Of a stretch of 64,000 nt of DNA, positions 1,156-27,144 are shown piece after piece. The position numbers and the translations under genes were made by a program. The notes under the pieces are model-generated. The model was not told the DNA's origin. It saw only the letters and a program-made list of their open reading frames with translations, and ran no database searches. The first letter of the stretch is position 1, and the number at the start of each line of letters is the position of its first letter. Where the stretch lies: NCBI RefSeq assembly GCF_003334335.1, contig NZ_QOWQ01000025.1; one strand, 5' to 3'. This DNA comes from Escherichia coli. GTDB taxonomy: Bacteria > Pseudomonadota > Gammaproteobacteria > Enterobacterales > Enterobacteriaceae.

Positions 1156-1239
1156 TTAATTTCGATTATTTTTCCCGGATGGAAAATTCTTAGAAACCGA
1201 TCACATACAGCTGCATTTATTAAGGTTATCATCCGTTTC

Positions 1240-1326
1240 GCTGAAAAACATAACCCATAAAATGCTAGCTGTACCAGGAACCACCTCCTTAGCCTGTGTA
1301 ATCTCCCTTACACGGGCTTATTTTTT
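1240..1326 (+). ncRNA. cyaR: CyaR (RyeE) small RNA; its 3' end coincides with the prophage att core
   Basis: Sequence GCTGAAAAACATAACCCATAAAATGCTAGC...CACCTCCTTAGCC...CCCTTACACGGGCTTATTTTTT recognised as CyaR with terminal hairpin and U-run; located between yegQ and ogr. Confidence 0.8.
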
Positions 1327-1327
1327 A
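1300..1327. repeat. attL core (direct repeat AATCTCCCTTACACGGGCTTATTTTTTA)
   Basis: Identical 28-bp sequence found again at 34981-35008 immediately after int. Confidence 0.85.
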
Positions 1328-1390
1328 CGTACAATAAATTGAAATAAAAGGATTTATTTCTGGTCACGTCCACACATTGACCACATCGAC

Positions 1391-1414
1391 AAAAAAGCCC
1401 CTCGACTGAGGGGC
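1391..1414 (-). terminator. Rho-independent terminator downstream of ogr
   Basis: Minus-strand hairpin GCCCCTC-AGTC-GAGGGGC followed by TTTTTT. Confidence 0.55.
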
Positions 1415-1427
1415 TTCCTGTTTGTAA

Positions 1428-1646
1428 TTACATCCACATAATTTGCTGCCCTGACGGCAACGGGTGCGGTCTTACGGCGTGGACTTCTCCCGGCTTCACG
1501 ATGTATCGCTGTACCGACTCATAAGTGATGAACGTGGCGCTGCAATTCACGTTCTGACACTGGTGATAACGCTCTTTTGTCGTGTCAGTGATATAGCGGC
1601 TTGTACGCGCATGTGCGGCATGCTGGCATAAAGGACAATGAAACAT
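1428..1646 (-). CDS. ogr: Ogr zinc-finger late-gene transcription activator (72 aa)
   Basis: MFHCPLCQHAAHARTSRYI...CQNVNCSATF four-Cys zinc finger; start trimmed to the Met giving the 72-aa P2 Ogr length. Confidence 0.9.
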   Translation of the reverse strand: MFHCPLCQHAAHARTSRYITDTTKERYHQCQNVNCSATFITYESVQRYIVKPGEVHAVRPHPLPSGQQIMWM

Positions 1647-1727
1647 CGCGAGCACCTCTTCCGGTTTTGTTGATGTTGCCATTTTAGTTAATTTATCCTT
1701 ATAAAACAAACAGATAAATAAAACACA

Positions 1728-2891
1728 TCACTCATCATCTTCTGTTTCGTACTCCACATCAGAAAGCCTTACCTCAAGCTCCAAAGACGTCGTGAAGCCG
1801 CTATTATTCAGAAAATGTGTCACCTTAGTGATTGTCCAGTCCTGCTCGTCTATGACGCGCTTAAAGCCTGACACTTTAACCGGTGTTTCCGTGTAAATAT
1901 CTGCCCGACCGGTAGCCAGGCTGATGGAGAACTCCGCGACGCCCCGTTGCAGTTTGTCCCACTTAGCCTGAGCGGCGCGCATGGCCTGCGCTTTTGTGGC
2001 ATATACCGTGGTCAGGGCAAAAACGTTGTCAGCCTCACCGGCCATGTATTCACCTTCGCGCGCTTCCGGTACTTTTGGCGCTTTCTTCTGCGTGACTGGT
2101 TTCGCTTTCGGGTGCTCCAGTGCGCGCAGGTGTTTCTCTTTCTTTTTGCGCTTCAGTTTTACCTTCTGCTTTTGTGGCTTCGGGTCTTTGGTGTGTAACC
2201 ACTTTGCCGTTACGCCGGTATAGGCTCCACGGTCAGCAATCGCAAAATGATGGCGGTCGCCGTCGCTGCGGGTGATGGTAATCTGCGGGATTTTTTTACC
2301 GCTGGCCGTCACCCCCTGCCCCGCTTTGAGAAACAGCAGTTTTCCCATTTTTACCGACACCTCGCCGCCGTTGCGTTCAGCAAGGCGGGTCAGGAATTTT
2401 GCATCAGACTCCTGCGACTGGTCGATGTGCGGGATTTTAATTCCGGCCAGTGACGGAGCGACACTGGCTTCCAGCCTGTTACGGGAGGCTATCGCCTCAA
2501 CAATCGCACCGAGCGTGGTGTCATGCCAGGAGCCTTCCCGGCGGGAATTGAGCGTCCCGCGGAAATCTGCACTCCGGGCGCGGATGGTGACCACATCCGG
2601 CGCGCCCCGGTGTTCAACCTCATCAACGGTGAATTTCCCTTTGCATACCAGGGCAAAACCTTTCCAGCCGATATACACCGTCAGGACAGCGCCACGAACC
2701 GGCAGCCCGACCTGCCCGTCGGCATCGTTCAGTTCAATATCAAGCTGGTCAGCTTCAAAGCCCCGGTTATCCGTCAGAGTCATGCTCATCAGACGGTCGC
2801 TGATATTGCCGGTAATATCCCTGCTGTCGAGCATCAGCATGTAATCCGGCGTCAGCGTACTGCCTGCATCAAATGTCAGCGCATCCAGCAT
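1728..2891 (-). CDS. D: Tail protein D (late control gene D)
   Basis: 387-aa ORF, same length and position as P2 gpD next to ogr. Confidence 0.85.
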   Translation of the reverse strand: MLDALTFDAGSTLTPDYMLMLDSRDITGNISDRLMSMTLTDNRGFEADQLDIELNDADGQVGLPVRGAVLTVYIGWKGFALVCKGKFTVDEVEHRGAPDVVTIRARSADFRGTLNSRREGSWHDTTLGAIVEAIASRNRLEASVAPSLAGIKIPHIDQSQESDAKFLTRLAERNGGEVSVKMGKLLFLKAGQGVTASGKKIPQITITRSDGDRHHFAIADRGAYTGVTAKWLHTKDPKPQKQKVKLKRKKKEKHLRALEHPKAKPVTQKKAPKVPEAREGEYMAGEADNVFALTTVYATKAQAMRAAQAKWDKLQRGVAEFSISLATGRADIYTETPVKVSGFKRVIDEQDWTITKVTHFLNNSGFTTSLELEVRLSDVEYETEDDE

Positions 2892-3370
2892 TATCCCGCC
2901 CCCATCATACCTGTGAATCTGGTCGCCAGACTGCCGGCCTTACCGATGAGCGATTCCGCCTGTTTACCAATATCGCCATAAAGCGCGGCCAGTGATTCAT
3001 CAACGCGGGTGAGCGACAGCGTAAAATCAATTTTCCGGGGTGTGCCGTCTGCAAAGAAAATACTCCCTGTTTCACTCACCCTGCTGATGACATACATACC
3101 GTAAATCATGCCGGTGCCATCCAGCAACGGCCACGCCCGGCCTTCCTCTGCCATCAGCCTGAGCGTGGTCATCGTCAGCTTCCCGCCGGTCAGTTCGGGA
3201 TAAAGCACACCGGCAAGCGTGATGTTTTCCTCGCCCACACCGAGAAACTGAAGGGCATCCCGTTTACCGATACGGGAATTTGACGGCCAGCGATAATCTG
3301 ATTCACGCTGCATGGTCTGGTGTGGCAGCGTCTGGCGCATAAAAACAAACATACCTAACGCGAGCATCAT
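2891..3370 (-). CDS. U: Tail protein U
   Basis: 159-aa ORF between T and D, as in P2. Confidence 0.8.
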   Translation of the reverse strand: MMLALGMFVFMRQTLPHQTMQRESDYRWPSNSRIGKRDALQFLGVGEENITLAGVLYPELTGGKLTMTTLRLMAEEGRAWPLLDGTGMIYGMYVISRVSETGSIFFADGTPRKIDFTLSLTRVDESLAALYGDIGKQAESLIGKAGSLATRFTGMMGAG

Positions 3371-3384
3371 TTTTCGTCACCTCC

Positions 3385-5832
3385 TTAACCGTCATGCATC
3401 ATGCTGGCACGGGCGCGCGCACGTTTATCCCGCTCGTATTTTTCGAGCGCATCCTGTAACTGGCGGTCGAGCTGAGTCCCCGGCGCAGTACCGCCCGTCA
3501 GACTGATGTGATATTCGTTTTTACTCTGGTCCACATAAGAGCGGCCAGCCGGTGCCGTAACCGGCTGATAAGCCTGATAACCTGCATAAGAGCTGGTCGC
3601 CGGAATATAACCACCGGTGCCATACGTGGCGGCATGAGTTCTGGCGGCGGTCTGGTCAAGTGTGTCTGACTCTTTGTTGATAACACCGAGTTTTTCCAGT
3701 ACCCAGTCAATACCGCTGCGCAGTTTGTTGAACGCATTAAGCGGCAGCATCAGCGCGTCAGCCAGTGCCTGCCCGAACATGACGCCCGTGTCACGGCAAC
3801 GGTTCAGGGTGTCCCGGGTGGCTTTGACCGGGGCAATCAGGTTTTTAAACCACTGCCACGCGGCCTGTAACTTTTCACCCAGCCAGTTAAACAGCGGCTT
3901 AAGTGGCGTGAACAGTTCCCCCACCGGCGCAAATGCCGCTTTCAGCCCTTCAACCACACCGCCAAAGAATGCGCTGACAGGCTCCCAGTATTTACGGATA
4001 AGCAACGCCCCGGCGACAATGGCAGCCACCACGGCCACAACCGGCCAGCTAATCGCACTGATGGCCGTCATAACGGCACTACCAACCGTCGTGAAGATTG
4101 CCCCCATTGCGCCTGCTGCCGCGATAATGGCATTGATGCCGGTGATAACCGGCCAGGCTACGAGGCCAATGGCACCGATGACACCAATCAGCGCCAGTGC
4201 ACCACCGACAATGATGCCGATGGTTGACGCCAGTGATTTGTTTTTCTGTATCCAGCCGTCGAGTTTTAACACATACTTTGTGGCCGTCTGCGTGAGCTTA
4301 CGCAGTGCGCCTTCCTGCTGGTCAAACAGGTCAGTCCCCACCGCCTCATAAGCGGACTGAAACTCCTTAAAGTCACCGCCGAGGTTGTCCTGCATGATAT
4401 TTACCAGCTCAGCGGTCTTCCCGTCTGAGGCTTTAAACGCAGCGGTCAGTTTGTCCAGCTTTCCAGTTGAGGCGGCAGTCATCAGCACGGCGGCGGCTGA
4501 GCTGGCCTCCTCCCCGAAAATAGTTTTCATGTATTCAGCCTGCTGGGCAGTACCGAGCCGGTTTTTCTCAAAACTGGCCTGCATTTCTTTCAGAATGGTA
4601 AATACTGGTCGGGTGTTTCCCTTGCTGTCTGAGGTTTTCACACCAAGCTCTTTGAGTGCATCCCATGCTTTTCCCGTCGGTGCCTGCAGGCGGCTTAACA
4701 CGGCACGGCTTCCCGTCCCCGCCATTGAACCAGTAATTTTTGCGTCATGCAGCGCCCCGACCATTGCGGCGGTTTCTTCAATGCTGACACCGGCATTTTT
4801 TGCCACTGGTGCGGCATAGGTCAGCGCATCGCTCATACCGTCAAAATCGGCGGCGGTTTTGTTCATCGTCATGGAGAGAACATCCCCGATATGAGCGACC
4901 TTATCGTTTGAAAGCTGAAAGGCGGATTTCATCCCCATCAGCAGGGCGGCGTTTTCTTCCATCGTGCGACGGTTCGCCAGCGCCATATTCAGCGTGACCG
5001 GCGTTGCCGCCTGAATGGCATCAACATCCCCACCGGCTTTCGCAATAATAATCTGCGCACCGGCTGCATCATCTGCCGAGGCTGCGGTATTGTCGCCGAG
5101 CTGGCGCGCCTGCTTGCGTAGTGCAGCCATTTCGGCGGAGTCTTTTGCCACACCGAGCACGGCCTGCAATTCTGAGTTTTTCTGCGCAAACTCATAACCG
5201 GGCATCAGCAACTTAACTCCGGCCATCGTTCCCGCAGCAGCAATCCCCACACCGGCAGCGCCCACTGAGGCCATATTTCCGGCCAGTTCCTTTCCGGCCT
5301 GATAACGCTGTTTGACTGCGTTAAGTTTTGCCTGTTGTGCGCTGACACGCGCCAGTGCATCGCGCTGACGGTTAAGTTGTGCGGTGGTTTCACTGATACG
5401 GTTTTTCAGCCCCTGCTCATCATGTGCAAGATTGCGGGTATTAATTCCCACAGCGGCCAGTTCCCGCTGCTGGCGTTTAACAGAATCCGTCAGGCGGTTA
5501 TATTTCGCCTGTAAGTCCTCCGCCGCACGCTTTGCGGATTCCAGCACTTTCGCCTGAGCACGGGTTGGACGTTCGGTGTTTTTAAACTGTGTGGCAAGGG
5601 CTTCGGCCTCCTGCCGTGCCTTTTCAAGTGCATGACCAGTCACGGCGAGCTGTGCACTGGTCTTGCGGAATCCCTCAATACGGGATGCGTGACCGTTCAG
5701 CTCGCGCAGTGATTTTTGTGTTTCCCGGATATCCCCCGACAGCGACCTGCTCGCTGTACGGATGGATTTAAACGGGCGGGATGCCTGGTCAACAGCCCTG
5801 AGCAATACCTGTAATTTTACATTGTTACTCAT
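3385..5832 (-). CDS. T: Tail tape measure protein T
   Basis: 815-aa ORF with coiled-coil N-terminus, Ala/Gly-rich hydrophobic central region; P2 gpT length and position. Confidence 0.9.
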   Translation of the reverse strand: MSNNVKLQVLLRAVDQASRPFKSIRTASRSLSGDIRETQKSLRELNGHASRIEGFRKTSAQLAVTGHALEKARQEAEALATQFKNTERPTRAQAKVLESAKRAAEDLQAKYNRLTDSVKRQQRELAAVGINTRNLAHDEQGLKNRISETTAQLNRQRDALARVSAQQAKLNAVKQRYQAGKELAGNMASVGAAGVGIAAAGTMAGVKLLMPGYEFAQKNSELQAVLGVAKDSAEMAALRKQARQLGDNTAASADDAAGAQIIIAKAGGDVDAIQAATPVTLNMALANRRTMEENAALLMGMKSAFQLSNDKVAHIGDVLSMTMNKTAADFDGMSDALTYAAPVAKNAGVSIEETAAMVGALHDAKITGSMAGTGSRAVLSRLQAPTGKAWDALKELGVKTSDSKGNTRPVFTILKEMQASFEKNRLGTAQQAEYMKTIFGEEASSAAAVLMTAASTGKLDKLTAAFKASDGKTAELVNIMQDNLGGDFKEFQSAYEAVGTDLFDQQEGALRKLTQTATKYVLKLDGWIQKNKSLASTIGIIVGGALALIGVIGAIGLVAWPVITGINAIIAAAGAMGAIFTTVGSAVMTAISAISWPVVAVVAAIVAGALLIRKYWEPVSAFFGGVVEGLKAAFAPVGELFTPLKPLFNWLGEKLQAAWQWFKNLIAPVKATRDTLNRCRDTGVMFGQALADALMLPLNAFNKLRSGIDWVLEKLGVINKESDTLDQTAARTHAATYGTGGYIPATSSYAGYQAYQPVTAPAGRSYVDQSKNEYHISLTGGTAPGTQLDRQLQDALEKYERDKRARARASMMHDG

Positions 5833-6252
5833 TCGTGTTTCCGCTTCGCCGGAGTGCCTTTTCGCGCCATGTGATGAGTTCGGTCAGGCTCATGGGATAC
5901 AGTTCTGATGGCGGCCAGTGAAATATCACTGCCACATCCGCCATCAGGTCATCGACCGAGAGATTTTTCGGAAACGTTACTGCACCGAGTTCGGCGACAA
6001 AAAACCGACCACCTTACCGGCCAGCGCCACAAGGTCAGGCAGTTCCAGCGCGGCGACCTCCTGCTCGGTCAGCATCGGTGCCGTCATGCGCGGCAGTACC
6101 TTAATCAGTGCATCGACTTCGGAGTTTGCAACCGCAGCCAGACTGACACCGCGCAGCGTCCCCGCACTGGGTTTCATCAGCGTGACCTGTTCGATAACCT
6201 GCTCACCACGCTTGACCGGATTGTCCAGGGTAATCACATTTTCTTTGTTCAT
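5825..6252 (-). CDS. Tail assembly chaperone E+E' (programmed -1 frameshift product)
   Basis: Slippery heptamer T TTT TTG at minus-strand 6004-5998; my manual translation of the -1 frame runs to TAA at 5827-5825, overlapping the T start codon. Confidence 0.7.
5977..6252 (-). CDS. E: Tail assembly chaperone E
   Basis: 91-aa ORF directly upstream of T; contains TTTTTTG slippery site. Confidence 0.85.
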   Translation of the reverse strand: MNKENVITLDNPVKRGEQVIEQVTLMKPSAGTLRGVSLAAVANSEVDALIKVLPRMTAPMLTEQEVAALELPDLVALAGKVVGFLSPNSVQ

Positions 6253-6308
6253 GGTTTTCTCACTTCTGAATCAGGGTTAACCGGTCAGCCAGGCTGACCG
6301 GATGAAAA

Positions 6309-6827
6309 TCACAGGCCGATATTTCGGCGGTGTTGCTCCAGCCGGTCGACGCCGTTCACCTTCTCAATCATGTTGATGGTGTCGATTTCGACCAGCTCCT
6401 TACCGTCCATCGTCAGCCGGAAATAGGTGCAGACCACGGAGATTTTCGACTCGGTGTCTTCTCCCTGTTTACCCTCGCCGGTGTCGATTTCTTTCTGACG
6501 TCCACGCATGACCACTTCGACGGCCACCGTTTCGCCGGTATCGTCGCGCTGGTAAGAACCGGCAAAACGAATCGGCACGGCATCCACACCGGTTGCGGCG
6601 TAAAGCTCCCAGATAACCGAATCCGGGAAGCCACCGAGCGACCACTCCATTGACAGCGCATCGTCATCAAGGCCGAGGTCTACCGGTGCGCTTCCGTTCA
6701 TCCCCGCACCGCGATAGTTTTCGAGCTTACGGGTCAGTTTTGGCAGCGTGACGGACTTTGCAACGCCCTGATAGCTGTAGCCGTTCAGAAAGACGTTCAT
6801 TAACTTGAGTTTGCGCGGCATTGCCAT
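6309..6827 (-). CDS. FII: Tail tube protein FII
   Basis: 172-aa ORF, P2 gpFII length and position. Confidence 0.85.
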   Translation of the reverse strand: MAMPRKLKLMNVFLNGYSYQGVAKSVTLPKLTRKLENYRGAGMNGSAPVDLGLDDDALSMEWSLGGFPDSVIWELYAATGVDAVPIRFAGSYQRDDTGETVAVEVVMRGRQKEIDTGEGKQGEDTESKISVVCTYFRLTMDGKELVEIDTINMIEKVNGVDRLEQHRRNIGL

Positions 6828-6839
6828 CGGTCAGGCTCC

Positions 6840-8030
6840 TTAATTGCTGTTAACCGAAGTGACCAGATTTGCCAGGTATTTATCGGTAATACGCTGGCGC
6901 AGGGTCAGGTTTTCAAGAGGAGGCACCGGGGTATAGTCGTAGTCGATATACAGTTTTCCGGCCTTGAGGGTTTCCGCATCGTTGGATTCTTCGCTGAACC
7001 AGCAGGTCGCATCCACGATATAGCCGTTTGTTTTCAGCTCACGGAATTTGGCATTGATGCCGTCAACGATGTCGCGAATCAGCGTTGCGGTGATGGGCTT
7101 GTCCACCGCCCACATGTGCGCCTCAGCCATCGTGTCGGCCAGCACCTGCGCGGTGCGGGTGTAGTTTTCAAAGAGGAACAGCGGGTCATCCGAGCAGGTA
7201 CGGTTACCCCAGAAGCGGAAACCGTCACGGCGAATCAGCGTTGTGACACCTGACTCATTAAGCAGGTCAGCATCGGTGCCGGACTCCTGCAAATCCCAGA
7301 ATACAGAGGCACTGATGCCGGTAACACCGTTTACCCCGACATTGGACAGCGTTTTATGCCATCCCTGCTCCTGGTCGATTCTGGCACGCAACCCCAGCGC
7401 ACGGGCGGTGGCATACGCGGTGGCGGTGGTACTGGTGACCGTATCCCATGCGAGGAAATCCGGCCAGATGACCATCAGCTCACGCTGGCTGAAATTCTGG
7501 CGGTAGGCTTTCACCTCGGAAATGGTCTTACAGCCCCATGCGCTGATATATCCGAAAGCACGCAGCTTCTGACAGACGGATGCCAGTGCAACAGCCACCT
7601 CTTTGGTATCCAGTCCCGGCACACCGAGAATACGCGGTTTAACACCGGTTACCGACTCCGCCGCCAGCAGGGCTTTCAGTCCGGTGTACTGACCGTTTTC
7701 GTCGGTGGTGCCGATGATATTGGAAACGGTCTGCGCGAGTTTCGTTTCCTCGTCGTCGCCGGTGCCGTCTTCCACACGCACGACAACGGTGACCGGTTTT
7801 GACTGGTCGGCGATGGCCTGCAACGATGCCGCCAGCGTGCCTTTTTTACCGGCCTTTGCAATTGCGCTCTGTACATTGGTTATCAGCACCGGTTTATTGA
7901 GGGGGAAGGTTTCCGCATCCGCATCGCTGGCCGTGCAGACCATGCCGACAATGGCCGTGGATACGGTGGAAATGACGCGGGTGCCGTCGTTAATCTCCAG
8001 CACCTGCACGCCGTGATGATAGTCACTCAT
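6840..8030 (-). CDS. FI: Contractile tail sheath protein FI
   Basis: 396-aa ORF, P2 gpFI length and position. Confidence 0.9.
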   Translation of the reverse strand: MSDYHHGVQVLEINDGTRVISTVSTAIVGMVCTASDADAETFPLNKPVLITNVQSAIAKAGKKGTLAASLQAIADQSKPVTVVVRVEDGTGDDEETKLAQTVSNIIGTTDENGQYTGLKALLAAESVTGVKPRILGVPGLDTKEVAVALASVCQKLRAFGYISAWGCKTISEVKAYRQNFSQRELMVIWPDFLAWDTVTSTTATAYATARALGLRARIDQEQGWHKTLSNVGVNGVTGISASVFWDLQESGTDADLLNESGVTTLIRRDGFRFWGNRTCSDDPLFLFENYTRTAQVLADTMAEAHMWAVDKPITATLIRDIVDGINAKFRELKTNGYIVDATCWFSEESNDAETLKAGKLYIDYDYTPVPPLENLTLRQRITDKYLANLVTSVNSN

Positions 8031-8130
8031 CCGTTTAACTCCGTGGTTAATGGGTGCAACTATTTTCTGTTGTGCAGAGTATGAGGCGCTATTTGACCTG
8101 GCTGGTCAGTGGATGAAACAACAGATAAAG

Positions 8131-8165
8131 AAAAGGCGGGCAATTCGCCCGCCTGTCCTGATTTG
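8131..8165 (-). terminator. Putative rho-independent terminator between the cargo locus and FI
   Basis: Minus-strand hairpin GGCGGGC-GAATT-GCCCGCC followed by TTTTCTTTAT. Confidence 0.45.
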
Positions 8166-8430
8166 TACTCACTCATTTTCCGCCTGACAATTTACATAGC
8201 CCAAATGCTATCAAATCTGACAGCCTGCTTTGAGCGAGTAACTAAATTTGATTTAAATAAATTATAAGGATTCAAATGTTATTGGCACAAATTCCTGAGA
8301 TGCAAACAGTCACACTAAGTGTTCAAACAAGGTTCTGGACTACGGCTAACTCATCAGTTAAGTTTGTTTCCGACCTGTCGTTTCTTCCCTGTCAGGAGTC
8401 ACTTTTCGTGTTATTTTTTAAGGATGTTTT

Positions 8431-9210
8431 ATGAGTAATGAAACACAATCATTCCTTAGTCAATTGCTAATATCCATAATCTCTATATCTTTAGGGTCAT
8501 TTCTTTTTGCTGGAATCCTAGAGAGCTACAAAAAAGACCAAGATCTTCAGGAGGAGTTTATAAAGGATTACTTTAGGCCAATGATGAAATTACAAAGTTC
8601 TTGTTCATCTTCACATAATGAACTATTTCTAAAGTATGGAGAGTTATCTGCTTCTTATCAGCTCATGTATAATGAAATAGTACATATGGCAATGAGCCCT
8701 GATTCAGAATTAGGACAACATTATGAAGTTCTCCCGATATCTCTTATTAAAACAAATGAAGAGTTAAAAAAAAGAGTTGAAGATCTTGAAATGACGGTAA
8801 AAAAATGCAATGTCGATTTATTCCTTAAGTACGAAGAGCTTGCATTAGTTACTGGTTCATATCCAGAGTTTAAGAGGCTGGCGAAAAAACACACTGACAC
8901 AATTAACTCCATCTATTCAGAAAGACAAAAAAAAGCAAAGGGAAATGCAAAAAATATAGACCCTGATCAACTAATTCCATTGATGCGGAAATATATTGCC
9001 ATGGATCCACACACCAATGTAAACAAATCCATGCTTGCCAGTGAAATTGATAACATATCTAAACTAACAACACAGCATAATTTGATAATGGCAGAATATG
9101 AGGAGTTAATTTTCAAAGAAGATAATGATTTATTTATAACTCTTCATGATCTTTATGCAATCAAAATTAGTGAAAAGTATTCAGGTGGATTTATCAGTTG
9201 GATATTTTAA
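8431..9210 (+). CDS. Cargo protein at the Z/fun position: N-terminal TM anchor plus coiled-coil domain, function unknown
   Basis: 259-aa ORF, SD AAGGA 7 nt upstream of ATG, about 33% GC versus about 55% in flanking tail genes, opposite strand to flanking phage genes; hydrophobic segment LLISIISISLGSFLFAGIL. Confidence 0.7.
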   Translation: MSNETQSFLSQLLISIISISLGSFLFAGILESYKKDQDLQEEFIKDYFRPMMKLQSSCSSSHNELFLKYGELSASYQLMYNEIVHMAMSPDSELGQHYEVLPISLIKTNEELKKRVEDLEMTVKKCNVDLFLKYEELALVTGSYPEFKRLAKKHTDTINSIYSERQKKAKGNAKNIDPDQLIPLMRKYIAMDPHTNVNKSMLASEIDNISKLTTQHNLIMAEYEELIFKEDNDLFITLHDLYAIKISEKYSGGFISWIF

Positions 9211-9361
9211 AACATGATAACTCATCAGATACAATGCTAACTATGTAGAACGCGTAAATCTGTGAAGGTTACCAATGTGTTAGGTAATGTCCGCTCCTTG
9301 CACAGAGCGGACTGTCAGATTAGGCTTTACTCTGTGCTATAGATATGTCAGCTCATACAAC

Positions 9362-9889
9362 TTATTGCGGCATTTCCGGCCATTCAGGATTTGCAGGATC
9401 CACACGGCTGACCAGAACACTGTAGCGTTCCCATGCTTCCAGTCGGCTACGCTCCTCATCTGTTGCCATGTTCAGCCTGACAGCGCGCTCCAGTGGCTGA
9501 ATAACGCTTTCCGCTTCGGAAAGTAACGCGGCCTTTTGTGATTCTGCCTGTTGTTGCTGTTCGTCTGCCGTATAAATCCGCTTAATCACGGCACCATCCT
9601 TAAACATCCATTTACCTGAGTCATCAGCACGTCGGTTGGCGGTAATATCAGGAACCTCGACAACGTTAAAACCTTCAGGGTTAAGCGTTGAAGCATCTCT
9701 GGTGATGCCGACAATTATATTATTCTCGTCGTAAACAATCTTTATCGTGTCTTCCTGAAAATTACTTACTTCCTCATACCAGTTTTTTCCCTCTTCGGAC
9801 CATAACCAGATAACATCAAAATTTTTTGTCAGTTGATATTGGGCAACAGTTTTTGGATTACCCGCAGTAATATTTTTTAAATGCTGCAT
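9362..9889 (-). CDS. G: Tail fiber assembly protein G
   Basis: 175-aa ORF directly downstream of tail fiber H. Confidence 0.8.
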
Positions 9890-9892
9890 AAA

Positions 9893-18510: not shown

Positions 18511-19008
18511 TTAAGCCGGTACGCCGCCAGCGGTACGCCAGACTGTGACCAGTTTTTCCAGTGAATGCTCACGCTGACCGTAACCGGCACCCGGCAGGGA
18601 CGCCCAGATATTGCGACAGCGTGAAATGGCGCGCTCAATGCGCCCCGCCCGGATGTCATCCAGTGCACCGCGTTCGCGGATCAACTGAATGGCAAGTCTG
18701 TCCTGTGACAACGGACTGAAATCCGGCAGGGCAAGCTGTTTGCGGTAGTGCGGCCAGAACAGGTAAAGCTGCTGATAGCGACCGGAAGCCGTGGACTTTT
18801 CACCGCGACGGTTAAATACCTTCGCCGGTCGGCCATGCGCGAACGGGTGGTCACTGTAGTCGGTGAAAATTTCCGGCTTCCCGTCCAGTCCGGTGACTAT
18901 CACGTCATAGCCCCGGTTTTTCGTCAGCGGATGATTCGCCGTCCCTTCGGACACGGCCAGCATGTCGAGAAAGGCGGCGATATTCTGATGCGTGTTAATT
19001 ACCGGCAT
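18511..19008 (-). CDS. K: Endolysin K
   Basis: 165-aa ORF, P2 gpK length, downstream of holin. Confidence 0.85.
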   Translation of the reverse strand: MPVINTHQNIAAFLDMLAVSEGTANHPLTKNRGYDVIVTGLDGKPEIFTDYSDHPFAHGRPAKVFNRRGEKSTASGRYQQLYLFWPHYRKQLALPDFSPLSQDRLAIQLIRERGALDDIRAGRIERAISRCRNIWASLPGAGYGQREHSLEKLVTVWRTAGGVPA

Positions 19009-19289
19009 TACTGTTTCCCCCTGCCCTTAAAGCGGCGCTGAATGGCAATCTCAATCACCTGATAACCGGCGATACCCAGCATGGAGCCAATGCCGCACAC
19101 CGCAGGCAGTGACAGGTCAGGAAACTGCACCAGAACAACACCGGCAACCATTGAGACAAAACCACCGAGCAACATGCGCCCGATAAACAGACGCGGGGTG
19201 ATGGGTTCACCACCGGCAAGCACCTTGCCGACAACAATCAGCACCCCAATCATGAAAAGCGACAGGACGCTTTTTTCTTCTGCTGTCAT
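19008..19289 (-). CDS. Y: Holin Y
   Basis: 93-aa ORF with TM helices and charged C-terminus. Confidence 0.85.
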   Translation of the reverse strand: MTAEEKSVLSLFMIGVLIVVGKVLAGGEPITPRLFIGRMLLGGFVSMVAGVVLVQFPDLSLPAVCGIGSMLGIAGYQVIEIAIQRRFKGRGKQ

Positions 19290-19292
19290 GCG

Positions 19293-19496
19293 TTACTCCC
19301 ACAGATTGACAGTTTCAGCCACGGGCGCGGTCTGAACGTCGGGCAGTTCGACGGCGGTGCCGTGTGGCAGCACCGCACCCAGTTCAGCCAGTCCCGGATT
19401 TGCGGCGAGCACGGTCTCAACCACGCCCTCAGAGCGCCCGTAATACCGGACACAAATGGCGTCGAGCGTGTCGCCCTGTAGCGCAAAGGTCTTCAT
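19293..19496 (-). CDS. X: Tail protein X
   Basis: Trimmed to the 67-aa P2 gpX length, starting MKTFALQGDTLDAICVRYYGR. Confidence 0.75.
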   Translation of the reverse strand: MKTFALQGDTLDAICVRYYGRSEGVVETVLAANPGLAELGAVLPHGTAVELPDVQTAPVAETVNLWE

Positions 19497-20005
19497 CAGA
19501 TTTGACTCACGATGCAGCGCGGCTTGTCCTGGATGCGCGCCACTGCCCAGCGCATATCCCGCCACAGCTCATCAATGGTGCTGTCAATGCTGTCGGCCTT
19601 CTTGTCTCCTTTCGCACTGGCATCCACGCCGCGGTAACGCTCATAAAGCGACGCGGTCGCCATCGCACACACGGCGCGCTCGTAGTAAAAAACTTTGATA
19701 CTTTCACCGTCGATGTCGTCCGCCGGAACGTCCGCCAGACGCGTAAAACCGGCGGCAATTTTCTGTTCGCGGTACTCGTACAGCTCCGCATTTGTTTCCG
19801 CCATGCCTGACTTGATGGCCTCACGCAGACGGGCGGGGGCGACGGTCTGCTCAAGGCGCATACGTTCCCGGACGCGCTTCGGGTCGATATCGGGAAAAAA
19901 GAACGTGTTTTTAATCACCGGCTCGTCGCCTGCCGGTTGCGGGATGACCACCGTACCCTCACCGGACACGGGAGCCTCCTTTCGCGGAATAATCAGCGTC
20001 ATCAT
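19496..20005 (-). CDS. L: Head completion protein L
   Basis: Trimmed to the Met giving 169 aa as in P2 gpL. Confidence 0.75.
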   Translation of the reverse strand: MMTLIIPRKEAPVSGEGTVVIPQPAGDEPVIKNTFFFPDIDPKRVRERMRLEQTVAPARLREAIKSGMAETNAELYEYREQKIAAGFTRLADVPADDIDGESIKVFYYERAVCAMATASLYERYRGVDASAKGDKKADSIDSTIDELWRDMRWAVARIQDKPRCIVSQI

Positions 20006-20104
20006 GACTACCTCTGAAAAGTCGGGCGGTGGACGCCGGTACAGCGTCAGGTGATTCACCCTCACTGACCGGCGTGCCGCCCTGGCGCGGGGCGCATTCG
20101 GTTG

Positions 20105-20848
20105 TTAACTGGCTTTCTTTTTCGGGCGTCCACGTTTTGCCGGTGTCACGCTCCGGGTCTTACGCGGGGCGCGGGTGGCCGCTTTGGGCTGCGGCTCCGG
20201 CTTCGGTTTCAGCTCCCGCTCCAGTCGTTCAATCTCTTTTTTGACGCCTGCCTGACAGTCGAGCTGTGTCGCACGTTGCAGGTGAGCCAGCGCACCGGCG
20301 GCATCACCAGCGTCACGCAGAAACAGACCGGTGATTTTGTGCAGCTTTGCGCGCACTTCATCAGGCATGTCAGCCGTGGCGGTCAGTTCAATGGTCTCCG
20401 TCAGCAGGCGGGTATCCACAGACTCACCGGCAGCGTGAGCACGCATGGCCGCGAGCGCCACCTCCTCGGTGAACATGTACGGCGGGGGGCGGCGGTGTTT
20501 ACCCGGCATGGTCAGACCGTACTTCAGGGCATAACGGGCAATCTCCAGCGCACCGGCAATATCGCCGGTATCCAGACGCCACAGCATGACCGTCATCAGA
20601 ATGTCATCCTGTGCACCTTTGCCCTGCTCCAGCACGCCGTTCACCCACGGCAACCAGAACGGCAGCAGTTCGCGTTTTTTCGCGGCCTTCAGCTCTTTTG
20701 AATAAATCGCTTTCAGTGTGCGCTGGTCTGCGGCCAGCTTGACCAGCATCTGCTCATAGACAGTTGCATGTCGCAGCGGGGCGGCTTCCCGCTGCGCGGT
20801 CATCGCTGCCGAGACCCGCATCATGTGGCGCTGTGCGGGACTCGTCAT
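20105..20848 (-). CDS. M: Terminase small (endonuclease) subunit M
   Basis: 247-aa ORF, P2 gpM length and position. Confidence 0.85.
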   Translation of the reverse strand: MTSPAQRHMMRVSAAMTAQREAAPLRHATVYEQMLVKLAADQRTLKAIYSKELKAAKKRELLPFWLPWVNGVLEQGKGAQDDILMTVMLWRLDTGDIAGALEIARYALKYGLTMPGKHRRPPPYMFTEEVALAAMRAHAAGESVDTRLLTETIELTATADMPDEVRAKLHKITGLFLRDAGDAAGALAHLQRATQLDCQAGVKKEIERLERELKPKPEPQPKAATRAPRKTRSVTPAKRGRPKKKAS

Positions 20849-20851
20849 CGG

Positions 20852-21925
20852 TCACGCTCCCGGCTCTGCGGTCGCCTTAGCCGGTGTGGAGAAATCACCG
20901 ACCTTAATTTTTTCCACCAGACAACCGGCGGCGTAGTCTTCCACCACGTAATCAATGTTCATTGACTCGTAGTTCTCCACGCGGTCGAGTTTCGGGTTTT
21001 CCACAATCACGCGGCGATGGCTGTCATCCATGTAGTAGATGGACAGGTTTTCCAGCTTCGTGATGAGCATCGCATCCGCCGGAAAGTACGGGACGCGTAC
21101 CGCCGGCAGGTTACCGATGCGTTTCTGGCTGATGATAACGTCAGCGGCCAGCATTTCGCTGCTGTCCTGCTCCTTGTTGACGATGGGGAAATACTTGTCC
21201 GCCAGTAGCTGACGTCCCACAATCACCACAAGGTCAGGGTCTTCCTGATACCACGGCTCAATCAGGTTGTTGGTCGCATCCATCACCAGTGCATCGAGGC
21301 TGGCATAATCACCGCCCTTACCCACGCGGATGACCTCAGAGGTTGTGTGACCTTCCTCGTCAGTAACCTTGCTCATCACGCGCGCCGGGGCTTCATTGCG
21401 GTATTTCTGCAGCCAGCCGACCGCCACATCCTGCAGCATCGGATTGCTGCTGCGGTCAGAGGTTTCGGCACGCTTCACACCGTTAAAACCGGCCATGATG
21501 AAATCAAGGGACTGGCGTTTGATAATGGCGTTACGGACACGGAGCTGGAAATCCTGATAACGCGCCCACAGGTCAAGCGTTTTGTAGCGGATATAAAAAT
21601 CGAAGTTAATCTGGTCGCATTCGTACTTGTTTGACGCCAGCTTCGAGAAGTCCTTCGGCTGACGCTCGGTGCCACCGGCGGTGTCGGTGGTGCTGGCGAT
21701 GGAGCCGGTGACACCGATACCAATTTTTTCCCCTTTCATTTCGCTGACCGGCACAATGTTGATGCGGGTCAGAAAGTCAGAGGACTCCTGCATGGTGTTC
21801 ATCAGGGTCTGGGTGACCGACGGTTCAACGGTGAATTTTTTCGACACATCACCGGCGTCGATGCCGTTCAGTTCGGCAACACGGGACAGGTAGGCATTAA
21901 ATTTAAAGCGGGTTTCCTGGCGCAT
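20852..21925 (-). CDS. N: Major capsid protein N
   Basis: 357-aa ORF, P2 gpN length. Confidence 0.9.
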   Translation of the reverse strand: MRQETRFKFNAYLSRVAELNGIDAGDVSKKFTVEPSVTQTLMNTMQESSDFLTRINIVPVSEMKGEKIGIGVTGSIASTTDTAGGTERQPKDFSKLASNKYECDQINFDFYIRYKTLDLWARYQDFQLRVRNAIIKRQSLDFIMAGFNGVKRAETSDRSSNPMLQDVAVGWLQKYRNEAPARVMSKVTDEEGHTTSEVIRVGKGGDYASLDALVMDATNNLIEPWYQEDPDLVVIVGRQLLADKYFPIVNKEQDSSEMLAADVIISQKRIGNLPAVRVPYFPADAMLITKLENLSIYYMDDSHRRVIVENPKLDRVENYESMNIDYVVEDYAAGCLVEKIKVGDFSTPAKATAEPGA

Positions 21926-21983
21926 AGTTTTTCCTGAAATTAAGGGTTAATCGTGAAGGTTTTCCCGGACTGACTGACGCCGG

Positions 21984-22838
21984 TCAGCAGTTCGTCATCA
22001 GGGCGTCACCGCCACCACCGGTGGCCTTGCTGCGGCGCTGCTGGGTCAGACTTTCGGTGTGGTCGAGACTGTTTTTCAGGCGGGTGAATGCCTGGCTGGT
22101 TTCATCCGCCCTGTCAGTCACCTCCTGCTTAAGTGCGGAAAAGGCGGTTTCCATCTCAGCGAGGCGCTGCTCAGTGGCGCTCAGTTTTTCCTGCACATGT
22201 TCAGCGACAGCGGTCACCGCTTCATGCACATCATTCAGACGGGCGTCATCGCTCGCCTGTTTGCGGCCAAAAATGGATTTCACCTTTTCGGTCAGGGCGG
22301 TGAACACGGTTTCAGGCAGGTCTTCAAATTCCAGCTCAACAGGCGTTGCCACTGAAATCAGGTTTTCAGGGCTTAATTTGAAGCGGTTCAGAGGGTTATG
22401 TTTTGCCGTGCGGCAGAATTCCAGGTATTCCGTGCCGAGGCTTGCCGGGTCATCTGTGACAGCCAGCCCCACCAGATAACATTTGCCGGTGTTGGCAAAG
22501 TTCGGCTGAATTTCCATTGAGGTGTAGACCTTCTGCGCGGCCTTGTTCATCGCGATAAGGTCATCGGTCGGGGTGATTTTCGCAAACAGCGCCCATTTGC
22601 CTTTCAGCGCCGAATCATCGTCAATCTTTTCGGCCTTCAGTTCGGCCACATCGCCATAACGCTTAAAAATACCGTCAGGCAGGATGCCGCGCAGATGTTC
22701 CAGGTTAATGCGGCAACCATAGACTCGCGGGTCAAAGGTTTCGGCCATTTCCTGAATATCCTGCGCACTGATGACACGCCCGTCACAGGTGTCACCCTCA
22801 ACGCCGATACGAAAGAATTTTGAGACTTTTTTTGCCAT
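21984..22838 (-). CDS. O: Capsid scaffolding protein O
   Basis: Start at MAKKVSKFF giving 284 aa as in P2 gpO. Confidence 0.85.
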   Translation of the reverse strand: MAKKVSKFFRIGVEGDTCDGRVISAQDIQEMAETFDPRVYGCRINLEHLRGILPDGIFKRYGDVAELKAEKIDDDSALKGKWALFAKITPTDDLIAMNKAAQKVYTSMEIQPNFANTGKCYLVGLAVTDDPASLGTEYLEFCRTAKHNPLNRFKLSPENLISVATPVELEFEDLPETVFTALTEKVKSIFGRKQASDDARLNDVHEAVTAVAEHVQEKLSATEQRLAEMETAFSALKQEVTDRADETSQAFTRLKNSLDHTESLTQQRRSKATGGGGDALMTNC

Positions 22839-23011
22839 TGTCAGGAGTCCTGAATAGTGATTAGAGGAGTCACATGTCGGCATCAGTTTCCCGACGATGC
22901 GCATCCTCCGCCATCAGTCCCGGATGGCTTATCACTGACACAACAGCACCTTAGCGAATCGCGGGGCGCGACTCAGTAGCCTTGCCGTGTATTCATCACG
23001 GCGAGGTATTC

Positions 23012-24784
23012 ATGACCATCACCACAGACACCACTCTTTTACACGACCCGCGTCGTCAGGCGGCGCTGCTGTACTGGCAGGGGTTTTCCGTGCCGCAGAT
23101 TGCCGCCATGTTGCAGATGAAACGCCCGACGGTGCAGAGCTGGAAACAGCGCGACGGCTGGGACAGCGTTGCCCCCATCAGCCGTGTCGAAATGAGTCTG
23201 GAAGCGCGACTGACCCAGCTCATCATCAAACCGCAGAAAACCGGCGGTGACTTCAAGGAAATTGACCTGCTGGGACGCCAGATTGAACGACTGGCGCGGG
23301 TCAACCGCTACAGTCAGACCGGCAACGAGGCAGACCTTAATCCGAACGTCGCTAACCGCAACAAAGGCGGGCGTCGCAAACCGAAAAAGAATTTTTTCAG
23401 TGACGAAGCCATCGAAAAGCTGGAGCAGATTTTCTTTGAGCAGTCTTTCGACTATCAGTTGCACTGGTATCGCGCCGGGCTTGAGCACCGCATCCGCGAT
23501 ATCCTGAAATCCCGCCAGATTGGCGCAACGTTTTATTTTTCCCGCGAGGCGCTGCTGCGCGCCCTGAAAACCGGCCATAACCAGATTTTTCTGTCGGCCA
23601 GTAAAACGCAGGCGTATGTGTTCCGCGAATACATCATCGCCTTTGCCCGTCTGGTTGACGTTGACCTGACCGGTGACCCGATTGTCCTGGGCAATAACGG
23701 CGCAAAACTAATTTTTCTCGGCACCAACTCCAACACCGCACAGAGCCATAACGGCGACCTGTACGTCGACGAGATTTTCTGGATCCCGAATTTTCAGGTA
23801 CTGCGTAAGGTGGCATCAGGTATGGCCTCACAGAGTCACCTGCGTTCGACCTATTTCTCCACCCCGTCCACGCTGGCGCACGACGCCTACCCGTTCTGGT
23901 CAGGTGAACTGTTCAACCGGGGACGCGCCAGCGCCGCCGAACGCGTGGAAATCGACGTCAGTCATAACGCCCTTGCCGGTGGGCTTCTCTGTGCGGACGG
24001 CCAGTGGCGGCAGATTGTCACCATTGAGGACGCCCTGAAAGGTGGCTGCACGCTGTTCGACATTGAGCAGCTCAAACGTGAAAACAGCGCCGACGATTTT
24101 AAAAACCTGTTCATGTGTGAATTTGTTGACGACAAGGCGTCGGTGTTCCCGTTCGAGGAGCTGCAACGCTGCATGGTCGACACGCTGGAAGAATGGGAAG
24201 ACTATGCGCCGTTTGCCGCGAATCCGTTCGGCTCCCGCCCGGTATGGATTGGTTACGACCCGTCACACCGTGGCGACAGCGCCGGATGCGTGGTACTGGC
24301 ACCGCCGGTGGTGGCCGGTGGCAAATTCAGAATACTTGAGCGCCACCAGTGGAAAGGCATGGACTTTGCCACCCAGGCGGAATCCATCCGCAAACTCACC
24401 GAAAAATACAACGTCGAATACATCGGTATTGATGCCACCGGCCTTGGTGTCGGCGTGTTCCAGCTCGTGCGCTCGTTCTATCCCGCCGCGCGCGACATCC
24501 GCTACACGCCGGAAATGAAAACCGCAATGGTGCTCAAGGCAAAAGACGTCATCCGCCGTGGCTGTCTGGAATATGACGTCAGCGCCACCGACATCACCAG
24601 CTCGTTTATGGCTATCCGCAAGACCATGACCAGCAGCGGACGCAGTGCCACCTATGAGGCCAGCCGCAGCGAGGAAGCCAGCCACGCCGACCTCGCCTGG
24701 GCGACCATGCACGCCCTGTTAAATGAGCCACTCACCGCCGGTATCAGCACCCCGCTGACATCCACCATTCTGGAGTTTTACTGA
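23012..24784 (+). CDS. P: Terminase large (ATPase) subunit P
   Basis: Start at MTITTDTT with SD GAGGT; 590 aa as in P2 gpP; divergent from O. Confidence 0.9.
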   Translation: MTITTDTTLLHDPRRQAALLYWQGFSVPQIAAMLQMKRPTVQSWKQRDGWDSVAPISRVEMSLEARLTQLIIKPQKTGGDFKEIDLLGRQIERLARVNRYSQTGNEADLNPNVANRNKGGRRKPKKNFFSDEAIEKLEQIFFEQSFDYQLHWYRAGLEHRIRDILKSRQIGATFYFSREALLRALKTGHNQIFLSASKTQAYVFREYIIAFARLVDVDLTGDPIVLGNNGAKLIFLGTNSNTAQSHNGDLYVDEIFWIPNFQVLRKVASGMASQSHLRSTYFSTPSTLAHDAYPFWSGELFNRGRASAAERVEIDVSHNALAGGLLCADGQWRQIVTIEDALKGGCTLFDIEQLKRENSADDFKNLFMCEFVDDKASVFPFEELQRCMVDTLEEWEDYAPFAANPFGSRPVWIGYDPSHRGDSAGCVVLAPPVVAGGKFRILERHQWKGMDFATQAESIRKLTEKYNVEYIGIDATGLGVGVFQLVRSFYPAARDIRYTPEMKTAMVLKAKDVIRRGCLEYDVSATDITSSFMAIRKTMTSSGRSATYEASRSEEASHADLAWATMHALLNEPLTAGISTPLTSTILEFY

Positions 24785-25818
24785 TGAGCAAGAAAAAAGG
24801 GAAAACACCGCAACCTGCGGCAAAAACAATCACCGCCAGCGCCCCGAAAATGGAGGCATTCACCTTTGGTGAGCCGGTGCCGGTACTCGACCGCCGTGAC
24901 ATTCTGGATTATGTCGAGTGCATCAGTAACGGCAGATGGTATGAGCCGCCGGTCAGCTTTACCGGTCTGGCAAAAAGCCTGCGTGCTGCCGTGCATCACA
25001 GTTCACCGATTTACGTCAAACGTAATATTCTGGCTTCAACGTTTATCCCGCACCCGTGGCTGTCCCAGCAGGATTTCAGCCGCTTTGTGCTGGATTTTCT
25101 GGTGTTCGGTAATGCGTTTCTGGAAAAGCGTTACAGCACCACCGGTAAGGTCATCAGACTGGAAACCTCACCAGCAAAATATACCCGTCGTGGCGTGGAA
25201 GAGGATGTTTACTGGTGGGTGCCGTCCTTCAACGAGCCGACAGCCTTCGCGCCCGGCTCCGTGTTTCACCTGCTGGAGCCGGATATTAATCAGGAGCTGT
25301 ACGGCCTGCCGGAATATCTCAGCGCCCTTAACTCTGCCTGGCTGAATGAGTCGGCCACGCTGTTCCGCCGCAAGTATTACGAAAATGGCGCACATGCCGG
25401 ATACATCATGTACGTCACCGATGCCGTGCAGGATCGCAACGATATCGAAATGCTTCGCGAAAACATGGTCAAGTCGAAAGGCCGCAACAACTTTAAAAAC
25501 CTGTTTCTCTATGCCCCACAGGGGAAAGCCGACGGCATTAAAATTATCCCCCTCAGTGAAGTGGCGACGAAGGACGATTTTTTTAATATCAAAAAAGCCA
25601 GCGCCGCTGACCTGCTGGACGCGCACCGCATCCCCTTTCAGTTGATGGGTGGCAAGCCGGAGAACGTCGGGTCGCTGGGTGATATTGAGAAAGTGGCAAA
25701 GGTCTTTGTCCGCAATGAGCTTATCCCGTTACAGGACAGGATCCGCGAGATAAACGGCTGGCTCGGTCAGGAGGTCATCCGCTTTAAAAACTACTCACTG
25801 GACACTGACAACGACTGA
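24784..25818 (+). CDS. Q: Portal protein Q
   Basis: 344-aa ORF overlapping the end of P, P2 gpQ length. Confidence 0.9.
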   Translation: MSKKKGKTPQPAAKTITASAPKMEAFTFGEPVPVLDRRDILDYVECISNGRWYEPPVSFTGLAKSLRAAVHHSSPIYVKRNILASTFIPHPWLSQQDFSRFVLDFLVFGNAFLEKRYSTTGKVIRLETSPAKYTRRGVEEDVYWWVPSFNEPTAFAPGSVFHLLEPDINQELYGLPEYLSALNSAWLNESATLFRRKYYENGAHAGYIMYVTDAVQDRNDIEMLRENMVKSKGRNNFKNLFLYAPQGKADGIKIIPLSEVATKDDFFNIKKASAADLLDAHRIPFQLMGGKPENVGSLGDIEKVAKVFVRNELIPLQDRIREINGWLGQEVIRFKNYSLDTDND

Positions 25819-27143: not shown

Positions 27144-27144
27144 A

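Follow-up and report, generated by a model that had tools for sequence, protein, structure and literature searches.

The E/E+E′ tail gene pair of a P2-type Escherichia coli prophage very probably carries a programmed –1 ribosomal frameshift site

Does the small tail gene E of a prophage in Escherichia coli encode one protein or two? Its locus lies in a 64,000-nucleotide stretch of contig NZ_QOWQ01000025.1, referred to here as the window, and the minus strand at 5998..6004 reads TTTTTTG within a 91-amino-acid open reading frame (6252..5977). A sequence-only reading of the region had proposed that this heptamer directs a –1 frameshift producing an extended tail chaperone. We consider it almost certain that the heptamer marks the site at which the tail gene pair E / E+E′ of a P2-type (Peduovirus) prophage undergoes programmed –1 ribosomal frameshifting, and we saw no sequence evidence against this interpretation. 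The site is already known: it is an ordinary copy of the P2 recoding site.

Gene E (5977..6252, minus strand) was defined by its open reading frame and translation. Its zero-frame product gpE is of the tail assembly chaperone type, with matches to PHROG 103 “tail protein” (E 6e-45) and, over residues 7–85, to the Pfam family Phage_TAC_7 (PF10109; i-Evalue 9e-12). All neighboring genes considered here share its orientation. Immediately upstream lies FII (6309..6827, minus), which encodes the tail tube protein (TIGR01611, E 1e-49) and is itself preceded by FI (6840..8030, minus). Downstream follow the full-length gene T (3385..5832, minus), encoding the 815-residue tail tape measure protein (TIGR01760, E 2e-105; PHROG 28), and the genes U (2891..3370, minus) and D (1728..2891, minus). 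The order sheath, tube, E/E′, tape measure is that of P2, with E/E′ placed between FII and T in the FI-FII-E-T-U-D operon. A hairpin occupies the FII-E intergenic region (6281..6301, minus); it consists of a 9-bp stem (CCGGUCAGC/GCUGACCGG) and a 3-nt loop and folds at –16.8 kcal/mol (z –2.6 versus shuffles). This hairpin is context only and no part of the frameshift signal. Its homolog in phage 186 is annotated as “tI; partial terminator”.

Within gene E, the heptamer stands in the X_XXY_YYZ register required of a slippery site, as T_TTT_TTG across codons 83–85 (GGT TTT TTG; 5998..6004, minus), and six codons separate it from the stop codon of E (TAA 5979..5977). Starting from the re-read G5998, the –1 frame comprises 57 open codons (VAELGAVTFPKNLSVDDLMADVAVIFHWPPSELYPMSLTELITWREKALRRSGNTNE) and remains open up to a TAA at 5827..5825, with no early stop behind the heptamer. 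This E′ extension (5825..5998, minus) completes an E+E′ coding region (5825..6252, minus; join 6252..5998, 5998..5825) for a fusion protein of 142 amino acids, in line with the extended product that had been expected from a –1 shift. The C-terminal part of the fusion contains the conserved E′ domain, Pfam Phage_P2_GpE (PF06528; residues 104–139, 5837..5944, minus; i-Evalue 2e-21), and the extension also matches PHROG 1756 and 6416, both “tail protein”. The Phage_TAC_7 and Phage_P2_GpE domains of the fusion thus sit in two different reading frames. NCBIfam held no model matching gpE or the fusion, and a sequence search of the PDB returned no solved relative, its sole match being spurious (E 0.88). 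At its 3′ end, the E′ reading frame overlaps the start of gene T by 8 nt (ATGAGTAA; 5825..5832, minus). The terminal TAA had been described as overlapping the start codon of T; the overlap with the gene is real, but the ATG occupies 5832..5830, and the TAA falls on codons 2 and 3, taking the third base of the former and the first two of the latter.

A heptamer of this kind could be followed by an open –1 frame by coincidence, leaving gpE as the sole product. TTTTTTG is indeed common, with 31 copies in the window when both strands are counted, and a stimulatory structure was not found (see below). However, only the copy at 5998..6004 combines a real zero-frame gene upstream (89 open codons) with a zero-frame stop no more than 10 codons away and at least 50 open codons in the –1 frame, and this –1 frame encodes a Pfam domain. 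What exceeds chance is the context of the heptamer together with its conservation, not the heptamer alone. Coincidence is further opposed by the retention of heptamer, codon phase and homologous –1 reading frame in relatives whose fusion proteins are only 35–50% identical to that of the window, and by experimental evidence in P2, for which a 142-residue fusion has been reported and which has exactly the same slippery site and protein products as the window. We regard this explanation as virtually untenable.

The DNA of the region is 98–99% identical to that of P2, and all of the 8 differences in 446 bases are silent in both frames; one of them changes the E stop codon (TAA here, TGA in P2), which the E′ frame reads as GTA or GTG, both valine. 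At the protein level, gpE and the E+E′ fusion are 100% identical to P2 gpE and gpE+E′, as is gpFII to its P2 counterpart, while gpT is 98.2% identical over residues 1–815. The conserved E/E′ arrangement recognized by the sequence-only reading is therefore that of the P2 E/E+E′ locus itself. The efficiency of the P2 frameshift is reportedly about 10%, a value said to come from the 2002 study by Christie et al. (J Bacteriol 184:6522). The P2 GenBank record AF063097 annotates gpE, a joined gpE+E′ CDS with the remark “-1 frameshift; essential tail protein”, and a “site of -1 translational frameshift”, whose homologous base in the window is position 5997, immediately 3′ of the heptamer. The joined product (AAD03292.1), annotated as a two-piece join, has the same length and sequence as the fusion deduced here. 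According to two later papers that cite Christie et al. 2002, the P2 frameshift has been demonstrated experimentally and E′ is essential (PMC3091744, PMC5009743); the –1 shift occurs at TTTTTTG and yields E of 91 and E+E′ of 142 amino acids (PMC3091744), with an efficiency in P2 and its relatives that is 2–3 times that of lambda G-T (PMC5009743). The two loci, that of P2 belonging to the FETUD tail operon, agree in the heptamer, its phase, the six codons to the E stop, the 57-codon E′ extension, the 8-nt overlap with T, both protein products and the neighbors FI, FII, T, U and D. They differ in that the window copy is part of an integrated prophage with other cargo genes and another immunity repressor. 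From the identity of the slippery site and of both products with those of P2, we infer that frameshifting also takes place in this prophage.

According to the mechanism we propose, most ribosomes would read E to its TAA and release the 91-residue gpE, while a minority would slip. In these, the P-site tRNA-Phe (on UUU) and the A-site tRNA-Leu (on UUG) would both step back by a single base within U_UUU_UUG and pair anew, with UUU_UUU. Decoded a second time, the G would now be the first base of GUC, resulting in the 142-residue gpE+E′ with the junction VVGFL/VAELG and the 37-residue GpE domain at its C-terminus; for such tandem –1 slippage by the ribosome, the predicted junction peptide is VVGFLVAELGAVTFPK. 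The site would thereby set the ratio of gpE to gpE+E′ from a single mRNA. If lambda gpG/gpGT is taken as the model, both gpE and gpE+E′ would presumably act as chaperones: the N-terminal chaperone domain common to the two would coat gpT, the tape-measure protein, and tube subunits would be recruited by the E′ domain of the rarer fusion. In our literature search, we found no statement on P2 products binding the tape-measure protein, recruiting tube subunits or being absent from the virion, and a review of phage assembly (PMC3185693) does not mention P2 gpE.

A shift of frame might also arise during transcription, if RNA polymerase adds one U within the U6 run and the edited mRNA is then translated normally. 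The junction would in this case read GFFV instead of GFLV, and an extra-U transcript, like slippage in the P site only, would give the junction peptide VVGFFVAELGAVTFPK. In favor of this, six consecutive T form a homopolymeric run at the site, and a terminator scan flagged a weak terminator-like hairpin followed by a T-run, a possible pause site, at 6025..6004 (minus). However, efficient slippage of bacterial RNA polymerase is usually associated with runs of about 8–9 bases or more, and six U fall short of this length. Moreover, four of the eight pairs in the flagged hairpin are G-U, its folding hardly differs from that of shuffles (z –0.35 and –0.96), and it is not conserved in 186, PSP3, RSA1 and others.

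Further evidence on this point comes from a panel of 17 related phages, namely P2 and 16 others, most of them Peduoviridae. Fourteen of their fusion proteins were aligned to that of the window and are 35–79% identical to it. In every panel phage (17/17), gene E carries an X_XXY_YYZ heptamer in register close to its end, and a –1 reading frame of 51–71 codons homologous to E′ follows it. The heptamer is TTTTTTG in 13 and TTTTTTC in one, and the bases flanking it vary among relatives while the heptamer itself is constant. The remaining three carry AAATTTT, CCCTTTC or GGGAAAG, which contain no long homopolymer but still obey the rule of tandem tRNA re-pairing. In addition, all 14 T6 sites occur in one codon phase, and phase matters to tRNA re-pairing but not to a polymerase. 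We therefore consider transcriptional slippage highly improbable and retain ribosomal frameshifting as the explanation.

The same conservation is seen on a larger scale. A tblastn search of the fusion protein against 50,697 phage records matched 418 of them. In 401 of these, one place accounted for 80% or more of the query; all 57 such rows among the matches listed show the query aligned in two pieces. Phages 186 and PSP3 (orf51-orf52, gene H; gp23/gp23.5) share with the window the TTTTTTG heptamer in the same phase, six codons before the stop, a 57-codon –1 extension and an 8-nt overlap with the tape-measure gene, whereas their proteins are ∼72% identical and the N-terminus of the E homolog is 20 residues longer. 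Both records annotate a probable –1 frameshift. The 8-nt overlap of E′ and the tape-measure gene is present not only in P2, 186 and PSP3, but also in YenM06.16-2, Kp4LV2017 and Kp4886-2. An alignment of 15 proteins revealed a conserved block in the E′ domain, (V/I)(D/E)D.xADIAxIFHWPP...EL..WR..A..RSG.

Could E′ instead be an independent small gene of ∼39 amino acids, translated without any frameshift from the ATG within DDL-M-ADVAVIF? The extension does contain such an ATG as its codon 19; located 54 nt beyond the shift site, it is the first start codon of the –1 frame. In identical E. coli prophages, RefSeq/PGAP list a separate CDS of 120 nt for a “GpE family phage tail protein”, and several phage records do likewise. 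No Shine-Dalgarno-like sequence precedes this ATG, however, the 14 nt upstream being cggtcgatgacctg. The methionine is found in 9 of the 15 aligned homologs, while the others have V, A, I or W at this position, and in RSA1, Alfacinha3, Ec503458 and ST16phi5.4 the first ATG past the shift site is reached only within the conserved domain or after it. By contrast, the –1 frame can be read without a break from the heptamer on in each of the 17 panel phages, and the P2 record as well as PMC3091744 and PMC5009743 give E′ as a frameshift extension of E. An independent E′ gene thus appears very unlikely.

We also searched the surroundings of the heptamer for stimulatory elements. The 60 and 80 nt that follow it fold no better than shuffles (z +0.09 and +0.06), and the homologous downstream fold of phage 186 behaves in the same way (z 0.00). 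Efficient –1 frameshifting without a stimulator is, in general, unusual. P2 has likewise been reported without a stimulatory element (PMC3091744). Upstream, the hairpin with T-run at 6025..6004 was rejected as a frameshift modulator as well as a terminator or pause site. A Shine-Dalgarno-like sequence, UAAGGUGGU (6016..6008), pairs with the anti-Shine-Dalgarno at –8.1 kcal/mol and lies 3 nt from the heptamer. If it were a selected rRNA-pairing element, it could tune the efficiency of the shift, and such pairing might explain why P2-type sites shift 2–3 times as often as lambda without a downstream structure; we think this improbable. A GGU(G) core occurs 5–12 nt upstream in most relatives of the TTTTTTG type but is absent or weak in several. 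Where present, the GGUG core tracks a K/Q/E-V-V/I amino acid motif, and its spacing to the heptamer varies by one codon. The evidence favors the view that the Shine-Dalgarno-like motif is probably no more than a consequence of the K/E/Q-V-V/I-G residues conserved where the chaperone domain ends.

Frameshifts in tail assembly chaperone genes of the lambda G/GT type are said to form a functional class delineated by Xu, Hendrix and Duda in 2004. As in the window, the lambda gene pair is located between the genes for the major tail protein and the tape-measure protein; we re-derived its layout for comparison and found G_GGA_AAG five codons ahead of the G stop, with a –1 reading frame that overlaps the tape-measure gene H by 8 nt. 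The likeness to lambda invoked by the sequence-only reading thus extends to the arrangement, but not to detectable sequence similarity: blastp of E+E′ against lambda GT gave no match even at E values up to 100. Because of this missing homology to lambda gpG/gpGT, the membership of E/E+E′ in the class is functional and positional and does not place it in the lambda protein family. Further differences are the heptamer (G_GGA_AAG versus T_TTT_TTG), the length of the extension (144 codons for T of lambda versus 57), the non-contractile tail of lambda and, according to PMC5009743, a frameshift efficiency 2–3 times below that of P2. For lambda, PMC5009743 describes long and short products that are needed in a fixed ratio for tail assembly, that attach to the tape-measure protein and bring in tube subunits, and that the finished virion does not contain. 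The dnaX gene of E. coli (A_AAA_AAG) resembles the site in its tandem-slippage –1 shift on an X_XXY_YYZ heptamer and in producing two proteins in a fixed ratio, but it relies on flanking stimulators (PMC5009743); these are a Shine-Dalgarno-like sequence on the upstream side and a hairpin on the downstream side. The stable structure 5–9 nt downstream of the heptamer that characterizes sites of the dnaX / IS911 type is absent here, where no fold beats shuffles. In the window, UAAGGUGGU is 3 nt from the heptamer, and the position of this motif in relatives follows the amino acid alignment rather than a fixed spacing.

The prophage spans about 1300..35008 of the window and adjoins yegQ/trhP. Every essential P2 gene is full length, which, together with the intact frameshift site, suggests that the prophage may still be able to build tails. 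We found the site in 1583 of 5426 complete E. coli genomes (about 29%). In biological terms it offers nothing new, being another copy of a textbook recoding site. Its value lies in annotation: automated pipelines record E′ as a separate 39-residue “GpE family phage tail protein” beside a “phage tail assembly protein” and not as a joined E+E′ CDS, and a scan for the heptamer and the –1 reading frame can correct such split records. The more unusual features of the window are the cargo genes of the prophage, among them a Pycsar defence pair that occupies the orf30 slot.

Gene E lies on the minus strand (6252..5977), and its open reading frame translates to 91 amino acids. The slippery heptamer T_TTT_TTG that the sequence-only reading had placed on this strand inside E is present at 6004..5998, with GGT TTT TTG as E codons 83-85, and its X_XXY_YYZ register is the one required for tandem –1 slippage. 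The E stop codon (TAA, 5979..5977) follows six codons 3′ of the heptamer. An early stop codon in the –1 frame would have argued against the proposed extended product; translation past the heptamer instead revealed 57 sense codons from the re-read G5998 up to a TAA at 5827..5825, so this objection falls away and an E+E′ fusion of 142 amino acids is predicted. The same reading let this TAA overlap the start codon of the tape-measure gene T. The E′ frame does overlap the T open reading frame by 8 nt (common string ATGAGTAA), but the TAA lies across T codons 2-3 and leaves the ATG (5832..5830, minus strand) untouched. At a related locus in another strain (E. coli 50579417, 9079..9506), an internal stop codon makes the adjacent tape-measure gene a pseudogene, which is not the case here.

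A 581-nt segment spanning the site matches 74 phage records with 95-99% identity, including phage P2 (AF063097) with 98.1%. The P2 record annotates gpE and a two-piece gpE+E′ coding sequence described as [quoted passage not shown], and its annotated “site of -1 translational frameshift” aligns with base 5997, directly 3′ of the heptamer. At the site, 8 of 446 aligned bases differ from P2, all of them silent because neither gpE nor the fusion differs from its P2 counterpart (100% identity); one converts the E stop codon from TGA to TAA, where the E′ frame reads GTG or GTA, both Val. The feature is already known, its slippery site and protein products being identical to those of the experimentally characterised P2 site. 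Two Pfam domains encoded in different reading frames were found in the fusion: Phage_TAC_7 (tail assembly chaperone E/41/14; residues 7-85) and Phage_P2_GpE (residues 104-139). PHROGs likewise returned “tail protein” families for both the E and the E′ half. The gene neighborhood corresponds to the P2 F operon: FI (sheath, 6840..8030), FII (tube, 6309..6827), T (3385..5832), U (2891..3370), and D (1728..2891).

The heptamer itself is not rare, since TTTTTTG occurs 31 times on the two strands of the window together. Only the copy at 6004..5998 combines an upstream 0-frame gene with 89 open codons, a stop in that frame within 10 codons, and a long open –1 frame; where other copies have a long –1 frame, no gene occupies the “0 frame”. 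The non-chance signal is the context of the heptamer and the conservation of that context. A tblastn search with the fusion against 50,697 phage records matched 418, of which 401 cover at least 80% of the query at one place, and among the matches listed all 57 with such coverage align in two pieces, that is, in two reading frames. We compared P2 and 16 relatives, mostly Peduoviridae, from E. coli, Salmonella, Yersinia, Klebsiella, Burkholderia, Ralstonia, Pseudomonas, Aeromonas, Vibrio, Acidovorax, and Mannheimia. In all 17 phages, the last 4-22 codons of the E homologue include an in-register X_XXY_YYZ heptamer, and a –1 open reading frame of 51-71 codons that aligns with E′ comes after it. 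Together with the identity to P2, this supports both the conserved E/E′ arrangement proposed earlier and the frameshift reading of the locus. The fusions (14 aligned) show 35-79% identity to the one studied here. Their chaperone domain is conserved and ends in F-L at the shift site; a variable linker separates it from the conserved E′ block (V/I)(D/E)D.xADIAxIFHWPP...EL..WR..A..RSG. The heptamer stays constant while its flanking bases vary freely among the relatives compared. The 8-nt overlap with the tape-measure gene recurs in 6 of the 17 phages; the others show overlaps of 4, 11, 23, or 26 nt, none, or a gap.

The heptamer is TTTTTTG in 13 phages, TTTTTTC in one, and AAATTTT, CCCTTTC, or GGGAAAG in three. 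This distribution makes it unlikely that the extended product arises by transcriptional slippage on the U6 run: the last three heptamers are not homopolymeric, yet they obey the tRNA re-pairing rule, and all 14 T6 sites occupy one codon phase, although phase makes no difference to RNA polymerase. Tandem tRNA slippage is the best-supported mechanism. The tRNA-Phe paired with UUU (P site) and the tRNA-Leu paired with UUG (A site) would both move one base 5′ and form new pairs with UUU_UUU, after which decoding would restart at GUC, joining GFL to VAELG. Published work on P2 agrees with this mechanism. No downstream stimulatory structure was detected, as the 60-80 nt past the heptamer fold no better than shuffled sequences (z about 0). 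A P2 study from 2002 reportedly arrived at a shift of about 10% and is said to have found E′ essential by complementation. An upstream hairpin with a T-run, flagged by a terminator scan, was discarded as a stimulator because it is weak, insignificant, and unconserved. The Shine-Dalgarno-like sequence UAAGGUGGU (6008..6016, minus strand), which can pair with the 16S 3′ end (–8.1 kcal/mol), is separated from the heptamer by only 3 nt on its upstream side, and most relatives show a GGU(G) core upstream of the heptamer. The position of the GGUG core in relatives tracks the amino acid alignment and its spacing is not fixed, which favours conservation of the protein sequence over a selected stimulator.

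Automated annotation of RefSeq E. coli genomes and several phage records has E′ starting independently as a peptide of ∼39 amino acids. For at least the 12 identical copies that were listed from E. coli, PGAP gives a separate 120-nt “GpE family phage tail protein” beside a “phage tail assembly protein” and no joined, frameshifted coding sequence. Such a start is unlikely because its ATG lacks a preceding Shine-Dalgarno sequence, only 9 of 15 homologues have the Met, and the first ATG of some relatives falls within or past the conserved domain.

We re-derived the phage lambda arrangement from NC_001416, and its geometry closely parallels that of P2: G_GGA_AAG, a heptamer also found among the 17 phages, lies five codons before the G stop, and a 144-codon –1 open reading frame overlaps the tape-measure gene H by 8 nt. 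However, blastp of E+E′ against lambda GT found no similarity, even at E values up to 100; by sequence, this places the locus in the P2 gpE family, and it belongs to the lambda G/GT class in a functional and positional sense only. Lambda G/T/H (1210..1650 of the lambda locus) and E/E′/T (5825..6004) thus share fine geometry without sequence kinship: the heptamer precedes the first stop by 5-6 codons, and the –1 frame extends into the tape-measure gene by exactly 8 nt. In lambda, G and GT are made at a 30:1 ratio, both bind the tape-measure protein, and the T domain recruits the tube protein (PMC5009743).

The window is E. coli chromosome, and alignment to P2 delimits a P2-type prophage at about 1300..35008, adjoining yegQ/trhP beside ogr, with the attP core region mapping to 1300 and 35008. 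None of the essential P2 genes is missing or truncated (gpT, 815/815 residues), so the tail operon that contains the frameshift site is apparently functional. Of 5426 complete E. coli genomes, 1583 carry the same E/E′ segment. Between FII and E lies a stable hairpin (6281..6301, minus strand; 9-bp stem, –16.8 kcal/mol, z –2.6) that no T-tract follows. Its homologue in phage 186 is annotated as “tI; partial terminator of pJ transcript”, and the hairpin may reduce the expression of E, T, U, and D compared with that of sheath and tube. Differences from P2 fall at known variable slots (orf30, fun(Z), and tin/old), in the immunity repressor, and at the tail-fibre tip. Repressor C (65% identity), Cox (84%), and gpS (57%) have diverged, and the alignment of tail fibre H is limited to residues 1-251; judged from these comparisons, immunity and receptor specificity therefore probably differ from those of P2.

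The fun(Z) slot, which separates G from FI, contains an open reading frame for 259 amino acids (8431..9210, plus strand, opposite to the tail genes); it found no match in PADLOC, NCBIfam, or Pfam and is a candidate cargo or defence gene. Other prophages with a 100% identical E/E′ segment hold different genes in this slot. A two-gene cassette (26142..28812, minus strand) takes the place of P2 orf91, tin, and old. It encodes a 555-amino acid ATPase (27145..28812) matching PADLOC NsnB (2e-51), HEC-03B, PDC-M55A, and AriA, and a 333-amino acid partner (26142..27143) for which PADLOC, NCBIfam, and Pfam all gave no match, even at E values up to 10. The cassette is probably a defence system with an uncharacterised second component. 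Between V (13975..14610) and S (16629..17090), where P2 carries the unrelated, nonessential orf30, lies a Pycsar anti-phage pair (14711..16613, minus strand) consisting of the PycC cyclase (14711..16099; 462 amino acids; PADLOC PDLC00764, E 1e-128) and the PycTM effector (16074..16613; 179 amino acids; PADLOC match, E 9e-28). Its DNA has no megablast match among the 50,697 phage records and occurs in only 6 of the 5426 complete E. coli genomes, each with 99.7% identity.
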